IMG/VR virus record: IMGVR_UViG_3300036766_001719
Length of the DNA: 20,000 bases
DNA from: an uncultured virus (IMG/VR IMGVR_UViG_3300036766_001719)
Lineage: Duplodnaviria > Heunggongvirae > Uroviricota > Caudoviricetes
Reading direction: 5' to 3' (one strand)
Part shown: positions 924 through 16,014 of the stretch, in pieces
How the letters are laid out: every line of letters starts with the position of its first letter
Position numbering within the stretch: position 1 is the stretch's first letter
Translations under genes and position numbers: made by a program
The notes under the pieces: generated by a model
Seen by the model: the letters and a program-made list of their open reading frames with translations, nothing else
Told to the model about the DNA's origin: nothing
Database searches by the model: none

Positions 924-1568
924 CTAGATTCTCCTCACTGCCAAATCCTTTAAAGTAATACTCCAACTTGCCTTCCTTGGCGATTTATTCAAACAAAAAT
1001 CCAAAATTTCTTCGGAAGCTACAGCAACCGAAAGCATGATGATGTTTCTGGCCAAGGGATAATCACAAACATCACCTTCAACATCCTTTGGAACTTTGTA
1101 ATTTTCATCCCAAATCACTTCTCCATAATCTTCATAAAGACCAACATGGAGACAAGGAAGCTTTCTTGCTCTGATTTCATCCTGAATTAACTTCCTAGAT
1201 GCTGAATTATCGAAGGCATCAATAACCAATCCAGAACCCTTCAACAAAGACTTAACATTACTTCCAGTCAATTCTTTGTTACAATCATCAACTTCGACGC
1301 CAACATCACGGAAAACCTTATTTTTGAGTGCTGCAACCTTTAATGCTCCAACATCCTTTTCACCATAAACTTGTGTGTTTAGATTCTGAATTTCTACACG
1401 ATCCTTATCAATAACTCTCAACTTACTGAACCCTTGGCGAACAAGATTATCAGTAAGATTACTACCTAAAGCACCAACACCACAAATAGTAATATTAAAA
1501 GTCCCCAACTTGGCAATTAAGTCCTTGCCACGGTAGATTTCCTCATGATGGAACTTTGAATTAGCCAT
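924..1568 (-). CDS. ThiF/MoeB/E1-like ubiquitin-activating (adenylating) enzyme
   Basis: GVGALG nucleotide-binding loop, DKDRVEIQNLNTQ, DAFDN..SR, candidate catalytic Cys in DVCDYP. Start moved to ATG 1568 (MANSK), preceded by AAAGGAAAG. Confidence 0.9.
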   Translation of the reverse strand: MANSKFHHEEIYRGKDLIAKLGTFNITICGVGALGSNLTDNLVRQGFSKLRVIDKDRVEIQNLNTQVYGEKDVGALKVAALKNKVFRDVGVEVDDCNKELTGSNVKSLLKGSGLVIDAFDNSASRKLIQDEIRARKLPCLHVGLYEDYGEVIWDENYKVPKDVEGDVCDYPLARNIIMLSVAVASEEILDFCLNKSPRKASWSITLKDLAVRRI

Positions 1569-1569
1569 A

Positions 1570-2133
1570 TTACTTTCCTTTATTCTTATAAATGGCTTCA
1601 CACCACTCTACCAATTCTTTTTCTGTTAATGTTCTTTTCATCCAATTAACGACTTTGTGAACCCATTGAACATTGTCAAAAACATATCCTTTAGAGTTGT
1701 CTATTCTATCTAAAGATGCAGTTTGTCTCTTAGGATTCTTAATATACCTTCGCTCAAACCTTAGCGGCACTCCAGAAATTGCACATTTCCCATCTTGTTT
1801 AAGAAACAAATCCCAAACTTCTTCAATAGAAACATCTAATGTTTTATTTCTTTTCAAAGCACCATGCTTAAAATGACTCCAATAAGCACCACTTATCTCT
1901 CCGCATCCACGCCAATTATCTGCTGGCCCTCTGCACTTACCACAACTTTTAGTATTTTTACTAGTTAACGATCTTCCTATTATATCTTTTATATTGCCAC
2001 ATTCACATTGACACGTCCATAATGATAAACCGCCTTTCTTATCTGATTCCGCAAGCACTTTTAATTTTCCAAACTCTCTCCCTACAAGTTCTAACTTATT
2101 CCGAGCCTTTTTCATATAACTCCTTGAGTACAT
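1570..2133 (-). mobile_element. Free-standing HNH-type homing endonuclease
   Basis: N-terminal GREFGKLKVL..WTCQCECG..KSCG module; C-terminal SLDRIDNSKGYVFDNVQWVHKVVNWMK. Confidence 0.82.
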
Positions 2134-2175: not shown

Positions 2176-2584
2176 TTAATCTTCAATTTCAGTAGTGCCT
2201 ACCAATAAATTACCAAATCTTTTAATCTCACATTCCACTGGTTCTTCAACATCGTCATCATACCAATACGCACGCAACCCATCTGTTCCATGAATCGCAC
2301 AAATAAGACTTTTCCCTAAACAACTCACCCATGCGGTCATGGTTTTAAAATCACGGTCACTTGGCGAGGCAGTCCAATGCGGATGCGTATGTAAAAATCC
2401 TATAACATTATGGTGAGCGTCTTCTTGATTAAGAACATAGTAAGGATCAAAGTCAACACTTGCTATCTTCCCTGAAGTCATCTTACGGCGCTTCGCCCAC
2501 CACAACTTGCCTTTCTGTCCCCCCTACCAAAATCCAACAATGCTCAACTTGACAGTCTATCTTCAATTCATTAGTCGTAGTCAT
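2176..2584 (-). CDS. JAB/JAMM (MPN+) metalloprotease with an apparent +1 frameshift at the G6 run 2519-2524
   Basis: HTHPHWTASPSDRD fits HxH-x7-S-x2-D. The N-terminus MTTTNELKIDCQVEHCWILVG (ATG 2584, GGAG upstream) is in a different frame and joins if one G is removed. Confidence 0.82.
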
Positions 2585-3455
2585 CTTCGTATTCTCCACC
2601 ATAATTGTCACCTACACGCACGATCCTATGCCTGTTTCGCCCCTCCTTGATAACACCTACTAAACTTTGCAAATCAAAGGCTTTATCTCCGCCAGAGAGA
2701 CAAATGCCAGCAGATTCTACACTCAAATCATCCTTTTTTACAACAGAACGATGACGTTCACCTTCTACAGTATACTCAATTGTATAAGTATTACCACGTT
2801 CAATATAGCTGGAATATCTTGCTCCTGCCCTACGCAAAGCCGACTTGATTCTTTCTTCATTCTTATCCTTCTTGGCTTCAATATCAGCTTCTAAAGCAGG
2901 CCCATATGCCATTAAATAGGCATCTTGTTCTTCTACTGACATACCAGAACATACCAACTTACCAGGATCAACAAGCTTATTCAGACATTCACGCAAATAA
3001 ATTGGAATCTTTGGATCGGCCCCAGCACAAGTTTCTTGAAACCAACAATTTGCACCATCAAATCTAGCTTGTACCACTTCGAAAAGCTGAACTTCTTCTG
3101 GCAAAAAGACTGGAACAAGACCAGTTACCTTAAATCTAGTATCTGACCTAGATGCAGGCAACCCCAGCCATTGATTGTTGTTATTTCTGCACAAAATCAA
3201 TCTAATTGCAGGAAATAAATTAAAATATTGAGTTTTCTCAGACATATTAGGGGCACGAACAAACTTAGCTTCCTTATAAGAAGCAGGAGAAAATACACCC
3301 CATCCTTGAAAATCCTTTGGCTTAGAAACACTTAAATTAACAATAATTCCAGAAATACGAACTCTAATCGGCTTCCCTCTAAGAACAGGAGATAAGAATT
3401 GAGAGTTAAAAAAAGCGTTCTCTTCAGCAGCCAGTTTGTCAAATAAGTTACTCAT
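2571..3455 (-). CDS. Uncharacterised protein with a C-terminal E2-like motif (putative Ubl-conjugating enzyme)
   Basis: ESAGICLSGGDKAFDLQSLVGVI resembles the E2 G-x-I-C-L active site plus following helix; lies among E1, JAB and Ubl genes. Start moved to ATG 3455 (MSNLF). Confidence 0.55.
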   Translation of the reverse strand: MSNLFDKLAAEENAFFNSQFLSPVLRGKPIRVRISGIIVNLSVSKPKDFQGWGVFSPASYKEAKFVRAPNMSEKTQYFNLFPAIRLILCRNNNNQWLGLPASRSDTRFKVTGLVPVFLPEEVQLFEVVQARFDGANCWFQETCAGADPKIPIYLRECLNKLVDPGKLVCSGMSVEEQDAYLMAYGPALEADIEAKKDKNEERIKSALRRAGARYSSYIERGNTYTIEYTVEGERHRSVVKKDDLSVESAGICLSGGDKAFDLQSLVGVIKEGRNRHRIVRVGDNYGGEYEDDYD

Positions 3456-3484
3456 AAAAATTTCCTGGTAGACTATAATATAGT

Positions 3485-5830
<2,346 letters not shown>

Positions 5831-5880
5831 ACTCTAGCCTAACACAACATTAAATTAATTACTATCCCTAAATCAAAAAA

Positions 5881-5949
5881 TCCGTCTTAGTTTGGAAAGC
5901 TTTTTACCATTTGCAACAATGTTTGTAAGCTTTCCGTATCGGAGACGGA
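5881..5949 (-). ncRNA. Y-like RNA A (minimal, open-ended stem)
   Basis: UCCGUCU-CCGAUAC-GGAAAGCU-UACAAAC...AGCUUUCC-AAACUA-AGACGGA. Confidence 0.75.
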
Positions 5950-5982
5950 TGTATCGGTGTTGCCATTTAAGGCAACTCTATA

Positions 5983-6102
5983 TGGCGGGCGAGGCAAGAT
6001 TTTACTTGCATACTTCAGTTTTACGGACTGATGCTTGTATGTTTCTAAAGTAGGGAACACTTGCATGTTCTAGTCTTAAAAACTGGTTTCAGCTACTCGC
6101 CC
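5983..6102 (-). ncRNA. tRNA-like RNA B (GUA anticodon, CCA encoded) with a Y-like stem inserted in the D loop
   Basis: GGGCGAG/CUCGCCC-GCCA acceptor, UCAGU-CCGUAAA-ACUGA arm, degenerate T loop; insert ACUA-GAAC...GUUC-CCUA...ACAUACA. Confidence 0.72.
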
Positions 6103-6669
6103 ATAATGTTCTTTTCTATGGCAATTCCCGCACAACAAAATACACTTCATGATCTCTTCTAAAATCACCTTAATAGAACACTTTTTATGACAAAGGTTTC
6201 CAATTACATCTCTTTTGTCTTTAATGTGGTGAAATTGCAAACATTCTGTATCTTTTAGAGCACAAACCGCACAACTACTCATAGACTTATAATCCCATAC
6301 AAACGCTATGTTTCTATTTACTCTTGGGTTTAAGTTAACGTAATTATCATCTTTCTTGTGAAATTTTAAATGGCAATTTACACACAGCAAATCGCATTTA
6401 TTTATTTCCTCTAGAACTATAGCGTGACTAAATCTAGTAATGCCATCGGCTATCTCAAATAACTTTTCCTCTGGATTTCTGTGATGAAACTCCAAGCATA
6501 TTACTTCTTTCTCTCCACATTTGATGCAATAACCTTTACTTTTTAAATCGTTAATTAACGACTTAAAATTTTTTCTACTCCTACTTGCTCTCTCTCGAAA
6601 GCTTTCTTTGTTGTTTGAATAATAAGAGGCTCTCCATCTTACCTCTTCCGCTTTGTCTTTATAAGGCAT
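6076..6669 (-). mobile_element. Tandem (two-domain) HNH homing endonuclease
   Basis: Two CxxC...FHH...CxxLCxNCH repeats; 3' end overlaps the 5' end of RNA B. Confidence 0.85.
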
Positions 6670-6697
6670 AACTTAAAGTAGTTATACCTTATTGATT

Positions 6698-6768
6698 TAA
6701 CCGTCCAAGTTAAAAAAGCTGTTATAAACACCACTTGTTTGTAAGCTTTTTAGGTGCGGGACGGATTA
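6698..6768 (-). ncRNA. Y-like RNA C (minimal)
   Basis: CCGUCC-CGCACCU-AAAAAGCU-UACAAAC...AGCUUUUU-UAACUU-GGACGG. Confidence 0.75.
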
Positions 6769-6769
6769 G

Positions 6770-6842
6770 TGGCAGCGATAGGATTTGAACCTATGATCTC
6801 AACGTTATGAGCGTTGCGAGATAACCACTTCTCTACGCTGCT
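6770..6842 (-). tRNA. tRNA-Met(CAU), initiator-like
   Basis: Cloverleaf with CAACG-CUCAUAA-CGUUG and T loop UUCAAAU. A1:C72 mismatch and A11:U24 are initiator traits, but the three consecutive G:C anticodon-stem pairs are missing. Confidence 0.88.
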
Positions 6843-6860
6843 ACACTTAAAAACCTCATT

Positions 6861-6981
6861 TCGTCCAAGTTTTGAAAACTGTTTGGAAAACAATACTGGA
6901 TTTGAACCAGTACAGCAACTTGTTAAGAGTCGTGACCTACCATTGGTCAAATTGTTTGTAAGTTCTCAACATTGGGGACGA
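6861..6981 (-). ncRNA. Y-like RNA D carrying a complete tRNA cloverleaf (UAA anticodon, internal CCA)
   Basis: UCGUCC-CCAAUG-UUGAGAACU-UAC-[AAACAAU, GACC/GGUC, CGACU-CUUAACA-AGUUG, ACUGG-UUCAAAU-CCAGU, AUUGUUU-UCCA]-AAC-AGUUUUCAA-AACUU-GGACGA. Confidence 0.8.
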
Positions 6982-7001
6982 AACAAAGCTTTCTTACAAT
7001 T

Positions 7002-7229
7002 TCAACCGAAGACCGCATCAGGTCGCAACGTCAACTCGCCCGTTGCCTCATTACGGTCAATAGCAAAGTTTCTAAGCTTTGCCAAAGGAACATTGAGATG
7101 CGTAGCTACGGCGGTACGAATCTGCTCATCCGTAGAGAGCGTTCCAACGTCCAGGTCGTTCAGGGGAATATCCCAACTACGACCTTCATACCGAACGTGA
7201 ATTTGCGGAGCCGTCATCGTGTTTTCCAT
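7002..7229 (-). CDS. Small ubiquitin-like (putative beta-grasp) modifier ending in ...RPDAVFG
   Basis: 75 aa, AGGAGG Shine-Dalgarno, pattern compatible with beta-beta-alpha-beta-beta, terminal Gly, same strand as the E1 and JAB genes. Confidence 0.7.
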   Translation of the reverse strand: MENTMTAPQIHVRYEGRSWDIPLNDLDVGTLSTDEQIRTAVATHLNVPLAKLRNFAIDRNEATGELTLRPDAVFG

Positions 7230-7268
7230 CTCAACCTCCTTTTTACTCTTGTTTACTTCATCTACAAC

Positions 7269-7297
7269 ATTATACTCGACATCAACTAGATTGTAAA
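7269..7297 (-). promoter_or_regulatory. Sigma70-type promoter TTTACA-17-TATAAT upstream of the Ubl gene
   Basis: Near-consensus match. Confidence 0.75.
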
Positions 7298-7300
7298 GTA

Positions 7301-7424
7301 AAATTCGTCCAAGTCAATAAAGCTGTCAAGAAACTTTCGGAATTGAACCGAAAACTTCAACCTTGAGGGTTGCGCTCTACCAATTGAGCTAAGTTTGTAA
7401 GCTCTATCCATTGGGGACGAATTT
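7301..7424 (-). ncRNA. Y-like RNA E carrying a tRNA-like cloverleaf with a short acceptor stem
   Basis: 10-bp AAAUUCGUCC/GGACGAAUUU, AUAGAGCU-UAC-AAACU/AGUUU, D arm GCUC-AAUUGGUA-GAGC, CAACC-CUCAA-GGUUG, UUCGG-UUCAAUU-CCGAA. Confidence 0.8.
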
Positions 7425-7426
7425 AG

Positions 7427-7561
7427 TGGGGGAGCCTGGATTTGAACCAGGACTCTTTAGCTCCGAAGGCTAACGTCTTTGCCGTATGTAAGTTGAAAAT
7501 GTCGGGAACAATTTCTTGTTCAAGTCTCAACAACTGACAGTCTTAATTAGACTACTCCCCC
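7427..7561 (-). ncRNA. tRNA-Arg(UCG)-like RNA F with a Y-like stem inserted in the D loop
   Basis: GGGGGAG/CUCCCCC, GUCU/AGAC D stem, UUAGC-CUUCGGA-GCUAA, CCUGG-UUCAAAU-CCAGG; insert ACUU-GAACAA-GAAA-UUGUUC-CCGA...CAACU-UACAUAC. Confidence 0.8.
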
Positions 7562-7591
7562 ATATATCAAACTAACTAACATTCTTTTTAA

Positions 7592-7693
7592 CTGCTGTCA
7601 AACTTTCTCATTTATAGCCCTTTCGACTTTTTAAAGTCATCGTTTGTAGGCTATTAAAGTGGAGACGCTTTCGCATCTAAGTTTTAACAGCAG
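7592..7693 (-). ncRNA. Y-like RNA G (GAAA-capped stem, two alternative folds)
   Basis: GCUGUUAAA-ACUU-AGAUGC-GAAA-GCGUCU-CCAC-UUUAAUAGC-CC-UACAAAC. Confidence 0.65.
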
Positions 7694-7726
7694 ACGGACC
7701 AAACCTTTAAGAAATTCTTCTGCTAA

Positions 7727-7780
7727 GTTTGTACGCTGCACATCTAGGGGACGCTTTCGCATCCAAGTTTCAGCAGCAGT
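7727..7780 (-). ncRNA. Y-like element H (GAAA-capped stem; may extend over 7689-7806)
   Basis: GCUGC-UGAA-ACUU-GGAUGC-GAAA-GCGUCC-CCUAGAUGU-GCAGC-GUACAAAC. Confidence 0.65.
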
Positions 7781-7818
7781 GCTTACCGTTAGGTAAAGCC
7801 TCTGCTACGTCAACCATA

Positions 7819-7885
7819 GTCCAATTTCCGCATGTTTAAATTCCTCTTAGCTTTCTTTAGTTTGTAAGCTATAAAGGTTGGGGAC
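7819..7885 (-). ncRNA. Y-like RNA I (divergent 3' strand)
   Basis: GUCC-CCAACCUUUA-UAGCU-UACAAAC...AGCUA-AGAGG...AAUU-GGAC. Confidence 0.55.
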
Positions 7886-7975
7886 AAGTAGTAGGACCGC
7901 CCCTACGTTATCCGAGTTTTCACAGCGGGTCGCAACTCATTAATCTTTTTCTAGACTTAACTCATTGCTTCTATC

Positions 7976-8003
7976 ATTCTACTTCGTTTCGGTCAATTGT
8001 AAA
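7976..8003 (-). promoter_or_regulatory. Putative sigma70 promoter TTTACA-16-TAGAAT
   Basis: Near-consensus match upstream of RNAs I/H/G/F/E. Confidence 0.55.
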
Positions 8004-8028
8004 CTAAATTTTCCGAAAAAATAAAAAA

Positions 8029-8359
8029 CACTGTTTTAGTTTCCAGAGCGAAAGGACATATTACTATGGCCGTGCGTGATGTACAGATATTACTCTGTAC
8101 ACTCGTTTACACGCAAGTCAATCGGCCCTGGCTTCCGCCAGTGGGTTGATATTTAAATCAACCCTCGACCACCTTTTCAGGCTCCCGTAAGAGACTGACC
8201 GTGCAATTGCGGAAAAGGTTCACACCTTACATCCGATATTTTTTATCAGATGCTCCTTGGGATGTTCAACTATGCTTTGTCGGCATAGTCATTAAACCAA
8301 GGAAACTCGCTACCTTAGGACCGGCAGTTGTTTGTAAGCTCCAAAGGTCGGAAACAGTG
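8029..8359 (-). ncRNA. Large (~330 nt) multi-hairpin RNA J enclosed by a Y-like stem
   Basis: CACUGUUU-CCGAC..GGAGC-UUACAAAC ... GCUCU-GGAAACUA-AAACAGUG followed by U6; many internal hairpins. Confidence 0.72.
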
Positions 8360-8362
8360 CAG

Positions 8363-8485
8363 CGGCGTTTGAAGGATTCGAACCTTCTCAAAAGCTTATT
8401 AGGCTTTCTCATTCCAATTGTTTGTAAGCTTAAAAGATGGGGAACAATTTCTTGTTCAAGTTTATCAAGCCACTTTTAAACGCCG
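8363..8485 (-). ncRNA. tRNA-like RNA K (AAU anticodon) with the D arm replaced by a Y-like stem
   Basis: CGGCGUUU/AAACGCCG, AAAGC-CUAAUAA-GCUUU, GAAGG-UUCGAAU-CCUUC; 22-nt core identical to F and M. Confidence 0.78.
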
Positions 8486-8492
8486 TAAATTA

Positions 8493-8635
8493 AAACCGTC
8501 TTAGTTGAAAAAACTATTCTTAACGTGTCACTTTAAAAGAGTGATGCCTTTACCATTAGGCTACAAATTCTTACGAACTTGACGGGATTCGAACCCGCAT
8601 ATGTGTATGTAAGTTCTATCTGTTGGAGACGGTTT
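8493..8635 (-). ncRNA. Y-like RNA L carrying a circularly permuted tRNA-Lys(UUU)-like domain
   Basis: Order inside the Y stem: T arm GCGGG-UUCGAAU-CCCGU, acceptor CAAGUUC-GUAA-GAAUUUG, D arm GCCU-AAUGGUAA-AGGC, anticodon arm UCACU-CUUUUAA-AGUGA. Confidence 0.82.
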
Positions 8636-8637
8636 AG

Positions 8638-8756
8638 TGGATGACCTTGGAATCGAACCAAGAAGAAATTTAAAAATTTCTTTGCCAGTTTGTAAGCTCA
8701 AAAAGTTGGGAACAATTTCTTGTTCAAGTTATACAAGCTAACTTTTTAAGTCACCC
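8638..8756 (-). ncRNA. tRNA-like RNA M with the D arm replaced by a Y-like stem and a degenerate AU-rich anticodon arm
   Basis: GGGUGAC/GUCAUCC, CUUGG-UUCGAUU-CCAAG; 22-nt core identical to F and K; UACAAAC present. Confidence 0.75.
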
Positions 8757-8797
8757 ATTTAATTGTAAAAGATCAACTTCATTCATTCGACTTTTTA

Positions 8798-8825
8798 ATT
8801 ATACTTGATATACGAGTGTTGTCAA
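8798..8825 (-). promoter_or_regulatory. Sigma70 promoter TTGACA-16-TATAAT at the head of the RNA array
   Basis: Perfect -35 and -10 hexamers. Confidence 0.82.
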
Positions 8826-8844
8826 CCGATTTTCACAACTTTTT

Positions 8845-9105
8845 TCATTTTTTTTCTAAATTTTCTTTTTCATAATCCAAAATCGGTTTCTTCAAAGCTT
8901 CTCTTATTTTCTCAATCTGCCATTCTAACCCTTCCATATCCTCTGAGGAAAGGCTGATTGGTTCTTTCGTATATCCAAGCTTATCATCATGATAATATAC
9001 TTCATGTACGGCAAAATATTCAACAAATTCAGGAAAAACGCCCTTATTTTTCTCATAATGGGGATGTTTCTCCCTATGTTTCAGTACTCGATAATTCCAA
9101 GACAC
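8845..9105 (-). CDS. Hypothetical phage protein (MSWNYRV...HEVYY)
   Basis: ORF track; GTG start at 9105 preceded by GGAGG. Confidence 0.75.
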   Translation of the reverse strand: MSWNYRVLKHREKHPHYEKNKGVFPEFVEYFAVHEVYYHDDKLGYTKEPISLSSEDMEGLEWQIEKIREALKKPILDYEKENLEKK

Positions 9106-9214
9106 AGGCACCTCCAATAAGGTTCACGAAAATTCGATCAAGCAATGCCGAAAGTCGCCTCCACTTGCGTTAGTCGTTAAAGGCACTGTAAACGCAGACT
9201 ACATCAACGAATAG

Positions 9215-9290
9215 TCTAACTGAGTGGATTTGAACCACTGTGCTTCTGCTTCCAAAGCAGACGAGGTAAACCAGACTCCTCAACAGTTAG
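9215..9290 (-). tRNA. tRNA-Pro(UGG)
   Basis: CUAACUG/CAGUUAG, UCUGC-UUUGGAA-GCAGA, AGUGG-UUCAAAU-CCACU. Confidence 0.9.
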
Positions 9291-9374
9291 AATTAAAAGG
9301 TTCAAATCAAAAAATATAGATTCAACCGATTTTTTTCTCTGTCGCATACATAACATAACAAGGAGGAATTTCAA

Positions 9375-9518
9375 ATGACAATGTATTTCTTAGTTGGTTT
9401 AGTTGTAGTTTGTGTAATAATAGGGGTCGCTACACTTTTTATGAAGTGTAACTGCTCCTGTTGCGGACACGACCAATGTGGCGGAAAAGATTGCAAATGC
9501 GATTGCTGCCCTCATTAG
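9375..9518 (+). CDS. 47-aa membrane-anchored Cys-rich (metallothionein-like) peptide
   Basis: AGGAGG Shine-Dalgarno; MTMYFLVGLVVVCVIIGVATLFMKCNCSCCGHDQCGGKDCKCDCCPH. Confidence 0.75.
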   Translation: MTMYFLVGLVVVCVIIGVATLFMKCNCSCCGHDQCGGKDCKCDCCPH

Positions 9519-9718
9519 TGTTGTTCTGTACCGTAATAACCTAAGCCTAGAAATTTTCTTTTCGGCTTGACCTCTCCATGAATAAATGGGGAGGTCTTTC
9601 TTTTATTACGTTCTATTCTTTCTTTGCTGAAGGTAACTTGCGTCAAATCTCTTGGTGCATCCAAAAAATGGTCATCAGACACATCAGGTAGAGATTCAAG
9701 CCAAGCTTTGAAATTCAT
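9515..9718 (-). CDS. Hypothetical protein (MNFKAWLE N-terminus)
   Basis: 67-aa ORF. Confidence 0.65.
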   Translation of the reverse strand: MNFKAWLESLPDVSDDHFLDAPRDLTQVTFSKERIERNKRKTSPFIHGEVKPKRKFLGLGYYGTEQH

Positions 9719-9846
9719 CCAAGTATATAGTATCTCTCTATCCCAAACGGCGGCAGAGGCTTATAAATTTAATTATTCCTCTGCCTCAAATTGTCAAAGA
9801 TCAACCATGCCAAGAATCTTGGTACAGTTAACAAATCCTGCGAATC

Positions 9847-9918
9847 TAGCCCGTAGGAGAATCGAACTCCTGTCAACTGATTGAAAGCCAGTTATCCTTG
9901 CCGCTAGACGAACGGGCC
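9847..9918 (-). tRNA. tRNA-Glu(UUC)
   Basis: GGCCCGU/ACGGGCU, ACUGG-CUUUCAA-UCAGU, AGGAG-UUCGAUU-CUCCU. Confidence 0.92.
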
Positions 9919-9929
9919 ATTTTCCCAAC

Positions 9930-9962
9930 AAAAAACCCCACTCAGTTACCTAAGCGGGGTTG
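9930..9962 (-). terminator. Intrinsic terminator
   Basis: AAACCCCGCUUAG-GUAA-CUGAGUGGGGUUU running into a U tract. Confidence 0.75.
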
Positions 9963-10089
9963 ACTCATGTTCCCGGCTCAGGCATTTGCTCCTGAGCCTT
10001 TATTTAAACTCAGAGCATCAGCTTATCCGCTTCATTTGCGGGTTCATGATTAAAACATGGATGATTCTGAGTCATTTTCATACTACCTT

Positions 10090-10118
10090 ATTGTACGCAT
10101 CACAAAACAAATTTTCAA
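10090..10118 (-). promoter_or_regulatory. Putative sigma70 promoter TTGAAA-17-TACAAT
   Basis: Near-consensus match upstream of a structured ~150-nt segment. Confidence 0.55.
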
Positions 10119-10122
10119 GGAA

Positions 10123-10173
10123 AATTTTGGAAGTGGGAGAAAATTTTTTACCAGACCTCCCACTTCCAAAATT
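10123..10173. terminator. 17-bp perfect inverted repeat, probable terminator
   Basis: aattttggaagtgggag ... ctcccacttccaaaatt just downstream of ORF 10183-10275. Confidence 0.65.
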
Positions 10174-10182
10174 ATTCAAACT

Positions 10183-10275
10183 TTACCCGCCACAAGTTGA
10201 AGCAGGGGTTTTCTTAGGAGAAGCCTTCTTAGGAGCTTTCTTTGGCTCCTTCTTCGGAGATTTACTCTTACTCAT
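10183..10275 (-). CDS. 30-aa basic xPKK-repeat peptide ending in CGG
   Basis: MSKSKSPKKEPKKAPKKASPKKTPASTCGG; AAAGGG upstream and inverted repeat downstream. Confidence 0.7.
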   Translation of the reverse strand: MSKSKSPKKEPKKAPKKASPKKTPASTCGG

Positions 10276-10364
10276 GTTTTTCCCTTTCTAGAAAAAAGTT
10301 ACCGTTAACATAGTAGATGTTTACTTTTTTTCTTTGTAATTGTCAATATTATTTAAAATATTTA

Positions 10365-10673
10365 TCATAATGAATTAATCAATTCATTTAATCTTACCTC
10401 GTTTTGCATACCAACTATTTTCTTTACCAAATTCCCATCTTTAAAAAATAATAAAGCTGGAATTGTGGATATCTCATAGGCAACTGACAATTCTCTATTC
10501 TCTTCCACATTAACTTTACAGACTTTAATATCTGGATTGTTTTTAGCGAAACTTTCAAGAATTGGAGTTAAAGCTCTACATGGAGGGCACCAATGAGCGA
10601 ACATATCAACTATTACTAAGCCTTTAGCACTCATTACTTCAAAATCAAAACTCTCATTAGTAAGTTCTATCAT
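10365..10673 (-). CDS. trxA: Thioredoxin
   Basis: WCPPC active site, TIP cis-Pro motif, 102 aa. Confidence 0.93.
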   Translation of the reverse strand: MIELTNESFDFEVMSAKGLVIVDMFAHWCPPCRALTPILESFAKNNPDIKVCKVNVEENRELSVAYEISTIPALLFFKDGNLVKKIVGMQNEVRLNELINSL

Positions 10674-11129
10674 TTATAAACTCCAAACAAATCTATAGGC
10701 ATCTTCTTTATCAAACCAATTTTTAAGCACTTGAGTAGCTTTAAACTTCTGAGCTTTCAAAAACAAATGTGCATCTAAATTAGTTTCTCTGACATCAAAA
10801 ACCAACGCAGTTCTTTTATCAGGCTTTAACTTATCTTTCAATATATTTAGAAGTTCTGTACCTATTCCTTTTCTGGAATATTTCGCATCTACTACAAGTT
10901 TAGTCAGTCTGATATGGTCCTTATCCAAATGATAAATACAAATCCCAACTACTTTATTATAATTTTTATCTTCTGCTACAATGCCAACATTATTGATGCT
11001 TCTTAGATATGAAACGCACTCTTCTTCTGTCCAATTATTTTCCTTATCCTCTTTAGATATTCTCATTACATCCTTCATATCTCTTCTTATCATGATGCGG
11101 AAATATAAATTTTTAACTTTTGTTTTCAT
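10674..11129 (-). CDS. RimI-like GNAT acetyltransferase
   Basis: RKGIGT acetyl-CoA motif, VRETNLDAHLF, EDAY. Confidence 0.82.
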   Translation of the reverse strand: MKTKVKNLYFRIMIRRDMKDVMRISKEDKENNWTEEECVSYLRSINNVGIVAEDKNYNKVVGICIYHLDKDHIRLTKLVVDAKYSRKGIGTELLNILKDKLKPDKRTALVFDVRETNLDAHLFLKAQKFKATQVLKNWFDKEDAYRFVWSL

Positions 11130-14583: not shown

Positions 14584-15030
14584 ATGAACAGCTTTAAGTT
14601 ATTTTTTGAAGCCAGCGAAGAAGAAAAAAACGTAAAAGACACTCTAAACAAACTTCCTAAGTCACATGCTGCTTTAATAAAAAATTATAAATTTAAATGG
14701 CAAAAAGGGAATTGTTTAGATGGAGACAATAATCATGTTGGAGTAATTAATCCTAAAGCAAAAACCATTACAATAGCAGCTTCCTATAACTTTGGCAGAG
14801 AACATATAATATTACATGAATTGGCGCATAAAGTTTGGGAAACATTCATCATAAATGATTCAAAATTATTAAAAAAATGGAATAAAATAGTAAAAACCAC
14901 TAAAAATCGACCTAAGCAAAACAAAGAAGAACTTTTCTGTCATGCTTATAGCATTTACTATTGCAATAACAAAGTTGAAAAATTCAACTATCCAGAGTGG
15001 ATGCAATTTATTAAAAATTTATCTACGTAA
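14584..15030 (+). CDS. Putative zincin metallopeptidase
   Basis: ILHELAH (HExxH) with downstream EELFC. Confidence 0.65.
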   Translation: MNSFKLFFEASEEEKNVKDTLNKLPKSHAALIKNYKFKWQKGNCLDGDNNHVGVINPKAKTITIAASYNFGREHIILHELAHKVWETFIINDSKLLKKWNKIVKTTKNRPKQNKEELFCHAYSIYYCNNKVEKFNYPEWMQFIKNLST

Positions 15031-16014
15031 ATATTCTTTCCATGTCTTGCCTAATAAAAACCTATTTACCTGAGTTTTACTCATATTAACTCTCTTGGCT
15101 ATTTCTGTTTGACTAATATTGTTATTATGCAAATTAATTATTTCAACAGCAATATTTTTATTCATAATATGTCTATATTTTGTTTGTTTAAGTCCATCTA
15201 AGTTAATTTTATATTCCATACATTTATCTGGAACATATGGCTTTATAGAGTTTATAAAATCTAAATAAGAAGAGAATCCAATTGCTATTTCTGGTTTTTT
15301 ATTACGATCTCTAACCCAACAATTAGATATACCTAAATCCTTAATTTTATTAACTAAAAATTCACATTCGTCAAATGTAAAAGACAATGTTGAGAAATAC
15401 GCTTGTCCGTCATTTTCATTCCTCCATCCATCATCAAAAAACCAGATAGCCAAAGATAAAAAGGTGATTTTAATATCTTTAGGAACAATTTTAATTCTTT
15501 TTCCATTTTTATTAAATATATAATCGCCATTTGCATCACGTAAATACCATTTTAACTCCATTCCTTTAAATAAAGGATGAAATATTGTTCTCATGAAATA
15601 AAATTCATGCGGTCTATTTTCATAGATTGCCTTTAAAATATCTTTGTCAAAGCCCACAATAGTTTTATTATTAACTAATTTAGAGAATTTCACAGAAAAA
15701 GGCTTCAATCTTTCAAATTTCCAATGTAAGTAATCTTTCTGCTGTAGGCAATGTCCTTCCTCGTAACTAGACAATTTATTTTTTTTACCAATCTTAGTTA
15801 AACTGCCATCCCCTAACAATGAACCTGTTAAAATCTGCTCTTGATACTCCGTAAAAGGCACAGTAATGTCTTTATGTCTATTTGTTTTTCTTTTAATACC
15901 TAATTTCCTGGCACGCTTCCAAACTGACACAGCACAAATACCAAAATGATTAGCCGTATCTTGATTGGAATGACTAAGAAAATATTCTTCAAAATATTTA
16001 TTATCATCTATCAT
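15019..16014 (-). mobile_element. LAGLIDADG homing endonuclease flanked by HTH domains
   Basis: ILTGSLLGDGSL and SLAIWFFDDG motifs. Confidence 0.85.

Follow-up and report, generated by a model that had tools for sequence, protein, structure and literature searches.

RNAs of the YrlA family (RF02553), in the descriptions given by Chen et al. (2014, PMC4201824) and in bioRxiv 10.1101/312249, are encoded beside a Ro60/Rsr gene and on the same strand; their paired ends form a stem with a protein-binding module, and they carry a permuted tRNA-like domain in which a T arm is followed by a closed acceptor and a D arm, with the elbow nucleotides retained. Binding by Rsr and modification by tRNA enzymes (TruB, DusA) also characterize the family. 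YrlA is proposed to contact Rsr through the sequence GNCGAAN0-1G, located close to the 5' end of the RNA (Chen et al., 2014, PMC4201824), and a stem, a bulge and a further stem, assembled from the two ends of an RNA encoded beside a Ro60 gene, constitute the architecture described for Y RNAs (Chen et al., 2014, PMC4201824; PMC12135203). The YrlA of Mycobacterium smegmatis is permuted and has an acceptor stem of 7 base pairs (bp), with no anticodon loop in the description of Chen et al. (2014, PMC4201824), whereas Yrn1 of Deinococcus radiodurans can be drawn, following the same source, with a potential anticodon arm that has a 5-bp stem, a 6-nucleotide (nt) loop and another orientation. The Thermus phage phiLo encodes two Y-like RNAs, Yrl1 and Yrl2, upstream of its Ro60 (structures 9KOP and 9L5Y), which also show a stem, an internal bulge and a stem; they bear a CGAA motif, and the part of that report considered here mentions no tRNA-like domain (PMC12135203). 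The present analysis concerns an RNA element at 8635..8493, on the minus strand of a 20,000-nt stretch of DNA from an uncultured virus of the Caudoviricetes (IMG/VR record IMGVR_UViG_3300036766_001719); the whole of this stretch is referred to below as the window. Its conserved stem-bulge-stem handle, which recurs in about 12 copies upstream of a Ro60/Rsr gene and on the same strand, identifies the element as a YrlA-like Y RNA. It is probably one cistron of a phage-encoded Y RNA array built on a Ro60 handle, with a capped mimic of tRNA-Lys as its payload.

The element resembles YrlA in its linkage to a Ro60 gene, in the pairing of its ends and in the permuted core of T arm, closed acceptor and D arm, and resembles M. 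smegmatis YrlA in its 7-bp acceptor stem. Unlike YrlA as described in bioRxiv 10.1101/312249, it has a canonical anticodon arm with a 5-bp stem and a 7-nt loop after the D arm, and its handle leaves from the variable-loop position, whereas the anticodon-stem equivalent of YrlA leads into the Rsr module. In place of GNCGAAN0-1G it has a different conserved bulge, a box of the UACAAAC type and a second stem. In contrast to Yrn1, it possesses four canonical arms, with the anticodon arm placed after the D arm in the manner of tRNA; in contrast to the two phiLo RNAs, it belongs to an array of about 12 units. The element therefore falls outside RF02553, sharing two features with YrlA (rsr linkage and a tRNA-like core) and departing from it in three (score, motif, and the attachment site with its anticodon loop). 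These differences from the described YrlA RNAs are established by direct comparison. No description of an anticodon-bearing Y RNA attached at the variable loop, or of Ro60-linked arrays this large in huge phages, was found in the literature searched, a result that is provisional.

Starting at the 5' end, the arms are arranged in the order outer stem, second stem, T arm, closed acceptor, D arm and anticodon arm, and the features of the element are as follows:
8627..8635, minus strand: 5' strand of the outer stem P1 (handle), 9 perfect bp with 8493-8501
8621..8626, minus strand: conserved 5' internal-loop or bulge motif between P1 and P2, of the CC-N-AC type, as judged from the consensus of the 150 matches that score best with the model
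8612..8620, minus strand: 5' strand of the second stem P2, with 8 of 9 pairs formed with 8507-8515
8605..8611, minus strand: conserved single-stranded box, UACAUAC here and UACAAAC in most units
8599-8604, minus strand: 5' linker of 6 nt, from the box to the T arm
8582..8598, minus strand: T arm, 5 bp with a 7-nt T loop, aligned to the T arm of Rfam YrlA
8564..8581, minus strand: acceptor stem of 7 bp, read from the sequence as closed by the tetraloop GUAA (8571-8574)
8562-8563, minus strand: equivalents of U8 and A9, a two-nucleotide connector before the D arm
8546..8561, minus strand: D arm, 4 bp with an 8-nt loop containing a GG dinucleotide, aligned to the D arms of Rfam YrlA and Rfam tRNA
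8528..8544, minus strand: anticodon arm, 5-bp stem and 7-nt loop CUUUUAA, with the anticodon UUU at 8535-8537
8516..8527, minus strand: 3' linker of 12 nt, from the anticodon stem to P2 (exit at the variable region)
8507-8515, minus strand: 3' strand of P2, paired in the fold, the covariation analysis and RNAalifold
8502-8506, minus strand: conserved 3' loop of the ACU type
8493-8501, minus strand: 3' strand of P1, paired in the fold, the covariation analysis and RNAalifold

The boundaries fit exactly those given in an earlier note on this DNA, which had been made from the sequence alone. No open reading frame (ORF) of at least 50 amino acids overlaps 8493-8635 on either strand, and all features of the element lie on the minus strand of the window, as do its six ARAGORN tRNA genes. 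Minimum-energy folding yields the same helices (z = -3.65), and none of 200 shuffles was as stable. When the permutation was undone in silico, ARAGORN, used in place of tRNAscan-SE, called a tRNA-Lys(ttt) in all 22 junction variants; 500 dinucleotide shuffles gave no such call, and in the native, permuted order it made no tRNA call. The earlier note had held that the re-permuted sequence should score as a tRNA, and it does. The note had also described a permuted four-arm tRNA mimic, ordered T, acceptor (GUAA), D and anticodon and attached at the variable loop; the order agrees with the fold, with RNAalifold and with the re-permutation, and the outer stem is indeed connected to the body by linkers that run out between the stems of the anticodon and T arms. 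Its contrast with YrlA, in which the anticodon arm is replaced, is matched by the statement in Wang et al. (2018, bioRxiv 10.1101/312249) that the anticodon loop is missing there.

The two Rfam models that touch the element each recover part of it. The tRNA model (RF00005) matched 8570..8491 at 36.4 bits and recovered the true D and anticodon arms, whereas the T arm and the acceptor of this match are spurious. A canonical tRNA is a contiguous cloverleaf with free acceptor ends, and here the acceptor is closed by GUAA; the score as a tRNA is obtained once the order of the arms has been restored. In a local search the YrlA model (RF02553) aligned the T arm, the closed acceptor and the D arm at 25.5 bits (E 0.0011; model positions 30-81 to 8599..8546), below its gathering score of 69.

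Permuted tRNA genes are also known from red and green algae; in them, as in the permuted genes for two-piece tmRNA, the 3' part is encoded upstream of the 5' part. The products of such genes become ordinary molecules after cuts at the acceptor end, the permuted tRNAs through a circular intermediate, and the algal tRNA type is recognized by a bulge-helix-bulge beside the tRNA body and by a processable spacer between the acceptor ends. The element differs from it on both counts: no helix abuts the body, the linkers of 13 and 12 nt are unpaired in the consensus, and the spacer is a tetraloop of 4 nt. Its leader and trailer form the conserved handle, which resembles a protein-binding module.

Homologues were sought in loci collected around relatives of the Ro60 protein (17 viral and 80 metagenomic). 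Related viral loci had been retrieved with an alignment of 32 Ro60 sequences as the query; scans of viral contigs with the single Ro60 protein, or with an exact 21-mer of the hairpin handle, gave no match. A pattern scan detected 48 units, every one of them on the Rsr strand, in which the T arm is followed by a closed acceptor and a D arm, and a covariance model (R1) built from eight units gave 266 matches at E values up to 1 in 655,559 bases. Alignment of the 150 best of these separated two permuted classes. Class 1, with 39 rows, has no anticodon arm after the D arm and corresponds to the classical YrlA layout; one of its rows, from a related locus, was matched by the Rfam YrlA model at 38.3 bits, the alignment extending over part of the anticodon-stem equivalent. 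In this class the T arm is preceded by another stem-loop, which is not generally anticodon-like: only 5 of the 39 rows show a perfect 5-bp stem with a 7-nt loop there. Class 2, which has the architecture of the element, consists of 20 rows (19 from the model alignment plus L072), 19 of them distinct (L005 and L040 are identical), with a hairpin of 5 bp and 7 nt after the D arm.

Covariation was measured on eight homologues with a structure written by hand. In these, 95.2% of cells were paired, compared with 34-45% when the partners were slid by 1-3 columns, a somewhat generous control since the structure was derived from the same sequences; 32 of 43 pairs differed at both nucleotides, and none of the five measures was equalled in 500 shuffles. 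Changes on both sides affected 8 of 13 pairs in P1, 8 of 9 in P2, all 7 in the acceptor and all 5 in the anticodon stem; the T arm had 100% of its cells paired, and the D arm was nearly invariant among the homologues attached at the variable loop, across anticodon types. RNAalifold, which does not depend on the hand-written structure, found the same six helices from 18 sequences, with compensatory changes in 33 of 37 pairs, and no conserved helix between the two linkers; this agreement answers the concern over the slid control. A Levitt-type pair (A15:U48-type or G15:C48-type) between the nucleotide preceding the T stem and the second nucleotide of the D loop is possible in 14 of the 19 distinct homologues, two of them with G:C, and the handle therefore enters at the variable-loop position. 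The Ro60 proteins of the homologue loci are 41-75% identical. The fold of the element, with its conservation and covariation, is established by these results.

The handle, consisting of a stem, a conserved bulge, a second stem and a conserved single-stranded box, is common to every unit of the array, and the array and its presumed protein partner are located as follows:
5880..8756, minus strand: array of about 12 units with the same handle, from motif positions and model R1
5822..4290, minus strand: gene for a Ro60/Rsr orthologue of 510 amino acids with a HEAT-repeat ring and a vWA domain, presumed protein partner

A 10-mer around the box has seven exact copies in the window, all on the minus strand, and with one or two mismatches allowed it marks about 12 units from 5880 to 8756. 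Each unit is laid out as P1, a CC-containing loop, P2, the UACAAAC-type box, the payload, the 3' strand of P2, an ACUU-type loop and the 3' strand of P1. Among the 150 aligned units, the box is found in 145, and the 3' part of the handle has the consensus G.ACUUGGAC. Matches to model R1 in the window lie at 8494-8634, 6859-6983, 5880-5950, 6699-6766, 7303-7422 and 7671-7756. The remark of the earlier note that the array holds tRNA from three different faces also stood, in that the same handle flanks the acceptor end, or replaces the D-arm region, in sister units. The note mentions neither a handle of the Y RNA type nor the Ro60/Rsr gene on the same strand.

As in YrlA loci, the element is on the strand of the Ro60 gene (minus), 2.7 kb upstream of it. 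The related loci show the same linkage. Of the box motif there are 45 copies on the Rsr strand, spread over 12 of the 17 viral loci, and not one on the opposite strand; among the best 150 of the 266 R1 matches, 145 fall outside the window, and 142 of these share the strand of Rsr. Where a locus extends 5 kb to either side of Rsr (29 loci), 55 of these matches are upstream of the gene and one is downstream. In whole contigs, five of which were scanned (340-572 kb), 20 of 21 full-length matches are at most 4.4 kb upstream of Rsr. The ordinary tRNA genes of the window (His, Met, Pro and Glu) have no handle, and neither does a cluster of about 40 tRNA genes in G001, a related viral contig. The linkage of the handle to Ro60 genes is established by these counts, and it is because of this linkage, together with the stem-bulge-stem architecture, that we read the handle as a Ro60 docking module. 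The bulge at 8621..8626 is placed where Y RNAs bear their Ro60-contacting motif, by comparison with the account of Chen et al. (2014, PMC4201824), and the handle is most likely the docking site of the Ro60 encoded 2.7 kb downstream.

The identity of that protein is supported by sequence matches and by its predicted fold. Pfam detects only a weak vWA domain in the product of 5822..4290, and three tested relatives scored 26.1, 27.1 and 28.7 bits against the Pfam Ro60 vWA domain, for a cut-off of 27.7. In phmmer searches its best match among PDB sequences is the Ro60 of Thermus phage phiLo (9L5Y/9KOP; E 1.2e-5), and in PHROGs it matches phrog_850, 'RNA-binding protein' (2.9e-8). An AlphaFold model built on 32 relatives has a pLDDT (predicted local distance difference test) of 81.3, and its 12 best fold matches in the PDB are all Ro60/Rsr proteins, over the full length, with E values down to 9e-12 and TM scores up to 0.66; they include the human, Xenopus, Deinococcus and phage phiLo proteins. 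More than 2,700 relatives of the window protein were found, on contigs of up to 595 kb, that is, in huge phages. They form a large Ro60 clade that is invisible to Pfam and has an RNA handle of its own, missed by current Rfam models.

Of the 20 re-permuted class-2 rows, 18 were called as tRNAs by ARAGORN, and the two without a call have non-canonical loops. The types are Lys ttt (two, the window and L004), Asn att (two), Ile gat (three), Ile tat (one), Ser tga (three), Leu caa (two), Leu taa (two, the identical L005 and L040), Leu aag (one), Tyr gta (one) and Gln ctg (one). UUU thus occurs in 2 of the 19 distinct homologues, and the remainder include nine other anticodons (GAU, UAU, AUU, UGA, CAA, UAA, AAG, GUA and CUG). 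Most loops keep the pyrimidine-U ... purine-A frame, and four groups of identical loops on different stems account for 9 of the 19 distinct members: CUUUUAA in the window and L004, CUAUUAA in L031 and L010, CUGAUAA in L008, L011 and L039, and CUUGAAA in L018 and L058. L004, the closest relative, has a loop identical to that of the window on a stem that differs at all five pairs. These alignments suggest that the anticodon loop is selected by type. The near-constancy of the D arm across types indicates that the units are paralogues of one body with exchanged anticodons rather than independent permutations of each tRNA; L041 and L072, for instance, share their acceptor and D arms but have a Ser-type UGA and a Leu-type CAA anticodon, respectively. 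In 6 of the 19 (L031, L010, L041, L072, L005 and L028), the loop closing the acceptor contains CCA directly after the 3' strand or after a discriminator-like base. This CCA looks like a fossil tRNA 3' end followed by a spacer; such loops fit the dimeric-tRNA origin model of YrlA and hint at a two-piece chargeable product, possibly after processing by RNase P.

The orthologue L004 with UUU is encoded on a 373-kb viral contig of a related huge phage (G001), in which ARAGORN called 58 tRNAs, three ordinary tRNA-Lys(ttt) among them. A tRNA with a cta anticodon (called Pyl, of the amber-suppressor type) is also present on this contig, and nearly all of its tRNAs lie in clusters at 42-56 kb, without the Ro60 handle.

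How the RNA might act can be proposed from these features. The two ends of the RNA would pair into the handle, which by analogy with Y RNAs would dock onto the phage Ro60. The payload would then be a full L-shaped tRNA mimic with a canonical T arm, D arm and elbow nucleotides, a tetraloop-capped acceptor and a standard tRNA-Lys(UUU) loop. With the handle leaving from the pocket of the variable loop, the anticodon loop, the elbow and the acceptor/T minihelix would all remain exposed. The resulting ribonucleoprotein would present a tRNA-Lys look-alike that could not be aminoacylated as transcribed, and it could either tether Ro60 to a tRNA-reading factor or keep such a factor off the real tRNA; both the tether and the decoy action, like the binding itself, are proposals.

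Several observations weigh against a phage Y RNA docked on Ro60. The YrlA motif GNCGAAN0-1G was present in 0 of the 150 aligned units; in its place, the consensus of the 150 best matches shows GUCC at the end of the P1 strand, followed by CC.AC and by the UACAAAC-type box. Neither the window nor any of 33 related loci contains a match that reaches the threshold of an Rfam Y RNA or YrlA model, and no contig from an RNA library covered 8493-8635 among the runs examined. The one full-length match on whole contigs that is distant from Rsr (25 kb, in G001) lies inside a tandem tRNA cluster, and tandem tRNAs are the type of false positive of which Chen et al. (2014, PMC4201824) warn. The stem itself could be a leader-trailer stem acting as a processing site, and the assignment of a Ro60 site to the handle draws on gene linkage and architecture, from which we infer binding.

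The most serious competitor, although an unlikely one, is that the element is a decoy for anticodon nucleases, the capped mimic offering a tRNA-Lys(UUU) loop to a PrrC-like host nuclease and soaking up or reporting its activity, with sister units doing the same for other isoacceptors. PrrC targets tRNA-Lys(UUU), and the earlier note had on this ground proposed an unchargeable Lys mimic as a PrrC decoy. The Lys(UUU) loop stands, as does the capped acceptor, and in each of the four loop groups (9 of 19 members) the 7-nt loop is constant for its type while the stems covary; in G001, moreover, the mimic is accompanied by ordinary tRNA-Lys(UUU) genes, three in all. A Lys-specific PrrC decoy as the purpose of the family does not stand, because only 2 of the 19 members have UUU, and the term unchargeable is not certain for an RNA with a 7-bp acceptor stem. 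The set of anticodons extends to Ser, Leu and Ile types, for which we know of no dedicated anticodon nuclease; no nuclease gene was seen, no search having been aimed at one, and a decoy by itself leaves the need for Ro60 unexplained. On the other side, the Ro60-like gp130 of phage Bas63 is reported in a preprint (PMC11482910) to counter the Ppl defence system and adjoins tRNA genes for which its authors propose a possible Y RNA identity. A decoy role could also be the function of a Ro60-docked RNA instead of an alternative to docking.

Quite improbable is a precursor of a two-piece chargeable tRNA, in which RNase P would open the acceptor loop, the 3' tail would be trimmed and CCA added, as in M. 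smegmatis YrlA, leaving two pieces joined by the acceptor stem and the handle, i.e., a tRNA-Lys with a giant Ro60-binding variable arm. The 7-bp acceptor stem, the CCA in the closing loops of 6 of the 19 homologues, the retained framework of U33 and purine 37, and A/U-rich anticodons, which we infer to resemble those often found in phage tRNA sets, all agree with it, but the loop of the window is a bare GUAA with no CCA, and a body shared between Ser-type and Leu-type anticodons (L041 and L072) does not agree well with specific charging. Ordinary tRNA-Lys(UUU) genes, three in number, are already present in G001, and we know of no precedent for a protein-bound variable arm of about 60 nt on the ribosome. 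For these reasons, namely the ordinary tRNA-Lys genes of G001, the shared body of L041 and L072, and the bare tetraloop of the window, a mimic is favoured over a decoder. Hardly probable at all is that the element is functionless evolutionary debris, the decayed junction of two tandem tRNA genes, with the T arm and the 3' acceptor strand from one tRNA and the 5' acceptor strand, D and anticodon arms from the next. A dimeric-tRNA origin of YrlA is the model published by Wang et al. (2018, bioRxiv 10.1101/312249), in the portion considered here, and the CCA-containing loops (6 of 19) resemble former tRNA 3' ends with a short spacer. Debris, however, would not covary, whereas compensatory changes maintain all six helices of the element, including the capped acceptor and the handle stems, across Ro60 proteins that are 41-75% identical. 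An origin from tandem tRNAs, even if correct, would not make the element functionless.

Under the reading of the element as a Ro60-linked Y RNA with a tRNA mimic as its payload, the arrays beside Ro60 genes in huge phages might, tentatively and with more doubt than confidence, be libraries of isoacceptor-specific tRNA surrogates on a common handle; in the variable-loop class the anticodon loop, identical within each type while all stems covary, would be the selected read-out and would engage anticodon-reading machinery. The handle would in that case be attached at four sites (the acceptor end, the D-arm position, the position of nucleotide 26 and the anticodon stem, and the variable loop), and the partners would be machinery such as the decoding site or host anticodon nucleases, toward which the RNAs would act as decoys or sensors. 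If true, this would offer a first lead to the effector of tRNA-like Y RNAs, which has long been unknown. Wang et al. (2018, bioRxiv 10.1101/312249) expect, in the text considered, an unknown elbow-binding tRNA factor for the YrlA domain; the present class keeps an anticodon loop that is conserved by type and sterically freed by a handle at the variable pocket, which points to anticodon-reading partners. More generally, phage 'tRNA arrays' beside Ro60 genes can be largely Y RNAs, as was suspected by the authors of the Bas63 study (PMC11482910, in the part considered).

The remaining units of the array differ widely in payload. The minimal handle units at 5950..5880 and 6766..6699 (minus strand) have payloads of less than 20 nt and R1 scores of 46 and 44 bits, respectively. 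Those at 6983..6859 and 7422..7303 (minus strand) carry tRNA-like cloverleaf payloads, in which the acceptor stem continues the handle and begins inside the conserved box; ARAGORN called them Leu taa and SeC tca, respectively. Their anticodon loops are odd, with a pyrimidine at position 37 or C in place of U33, and they may be Y RNA payloads rather than decoders; if not, the tca unit would be an opal suppressor. The units at 8756-8638, 8484-8363 and 7561-7427 (minus strand) are tRNA-like, with open 7-bp acceptor stems and T arms, and in them a permuted hairpin handle, with P1 closed by GAAA, takes the place of the D arm. Hairpin handles of this kind occur 42 times in the related loci, all on the Rsr strand, and 30 of the 42 have a downstream T arm and perfect 7-bp acceptor pairing. 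The unit at about 8362..8030 (minus strand) has a handle and a payload of about 290 nt, the start of which (about 8323..8298) matches E. coli 23S rRNA 1920-1945 at 24 of 26 bases, which we take to be the region of the I-CeuI homing site. No Rfam family matched this unit (8030-8362), and it may be a stable Y RNA that mimics rRNA. Metatranscriptome contigs from two soil runs of one study, at 98-99% identity, span 8055-8342 only, and the only run with the whole array is a sediment DNA run, possibly its source. A self-cleaving ribozyme, a large RNA of the GOLLD or ROOL type, or an intron was rejected as an identity for the handle, as no such Rfam match occurred in 6000-11000 at E values up to 10, and a megablast search of 7300-9300 against a phage collection gave no match.

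Among the other genes of the window are four homing-endonuclease-like ORFs within the 20 kb, two LAGLIDADG (3485-4327, plus strand, and 15019-16014, minus strand) and two HNH (6076-6669 and 1570-2133, both minus strand). The HNH gene at 6076-6669 lies inside the Y RNA array, and the LAGLIDADG gene at 3485-4327 abuts the Ro60 gene. Downstream of Ro60, and likewise on the minus strand, are, beyond the intervening LAGLIDADG gene of the plus strand, an unassigned 310-amino-acid ORF (3503..2571), an ORF with a JAB/MPN-type domain (2505..2176), the HNH-type endonuclease (2133..1570) and a ThiF/E1-like ORF (1601..924); together, the E1-like and JAB ORFs close to Ro60 may form a module for ubiquitin-like conjugation. 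A 148-amino-acid ORF at 14584-15030 (plus strand) has a sub-threshold Pfam match to a lethal-factor-type metallopeptidase domain (25.4 bits for a cut-off of 27.4), and its product is probably a small zincin-like peptidase unrelated to the element.

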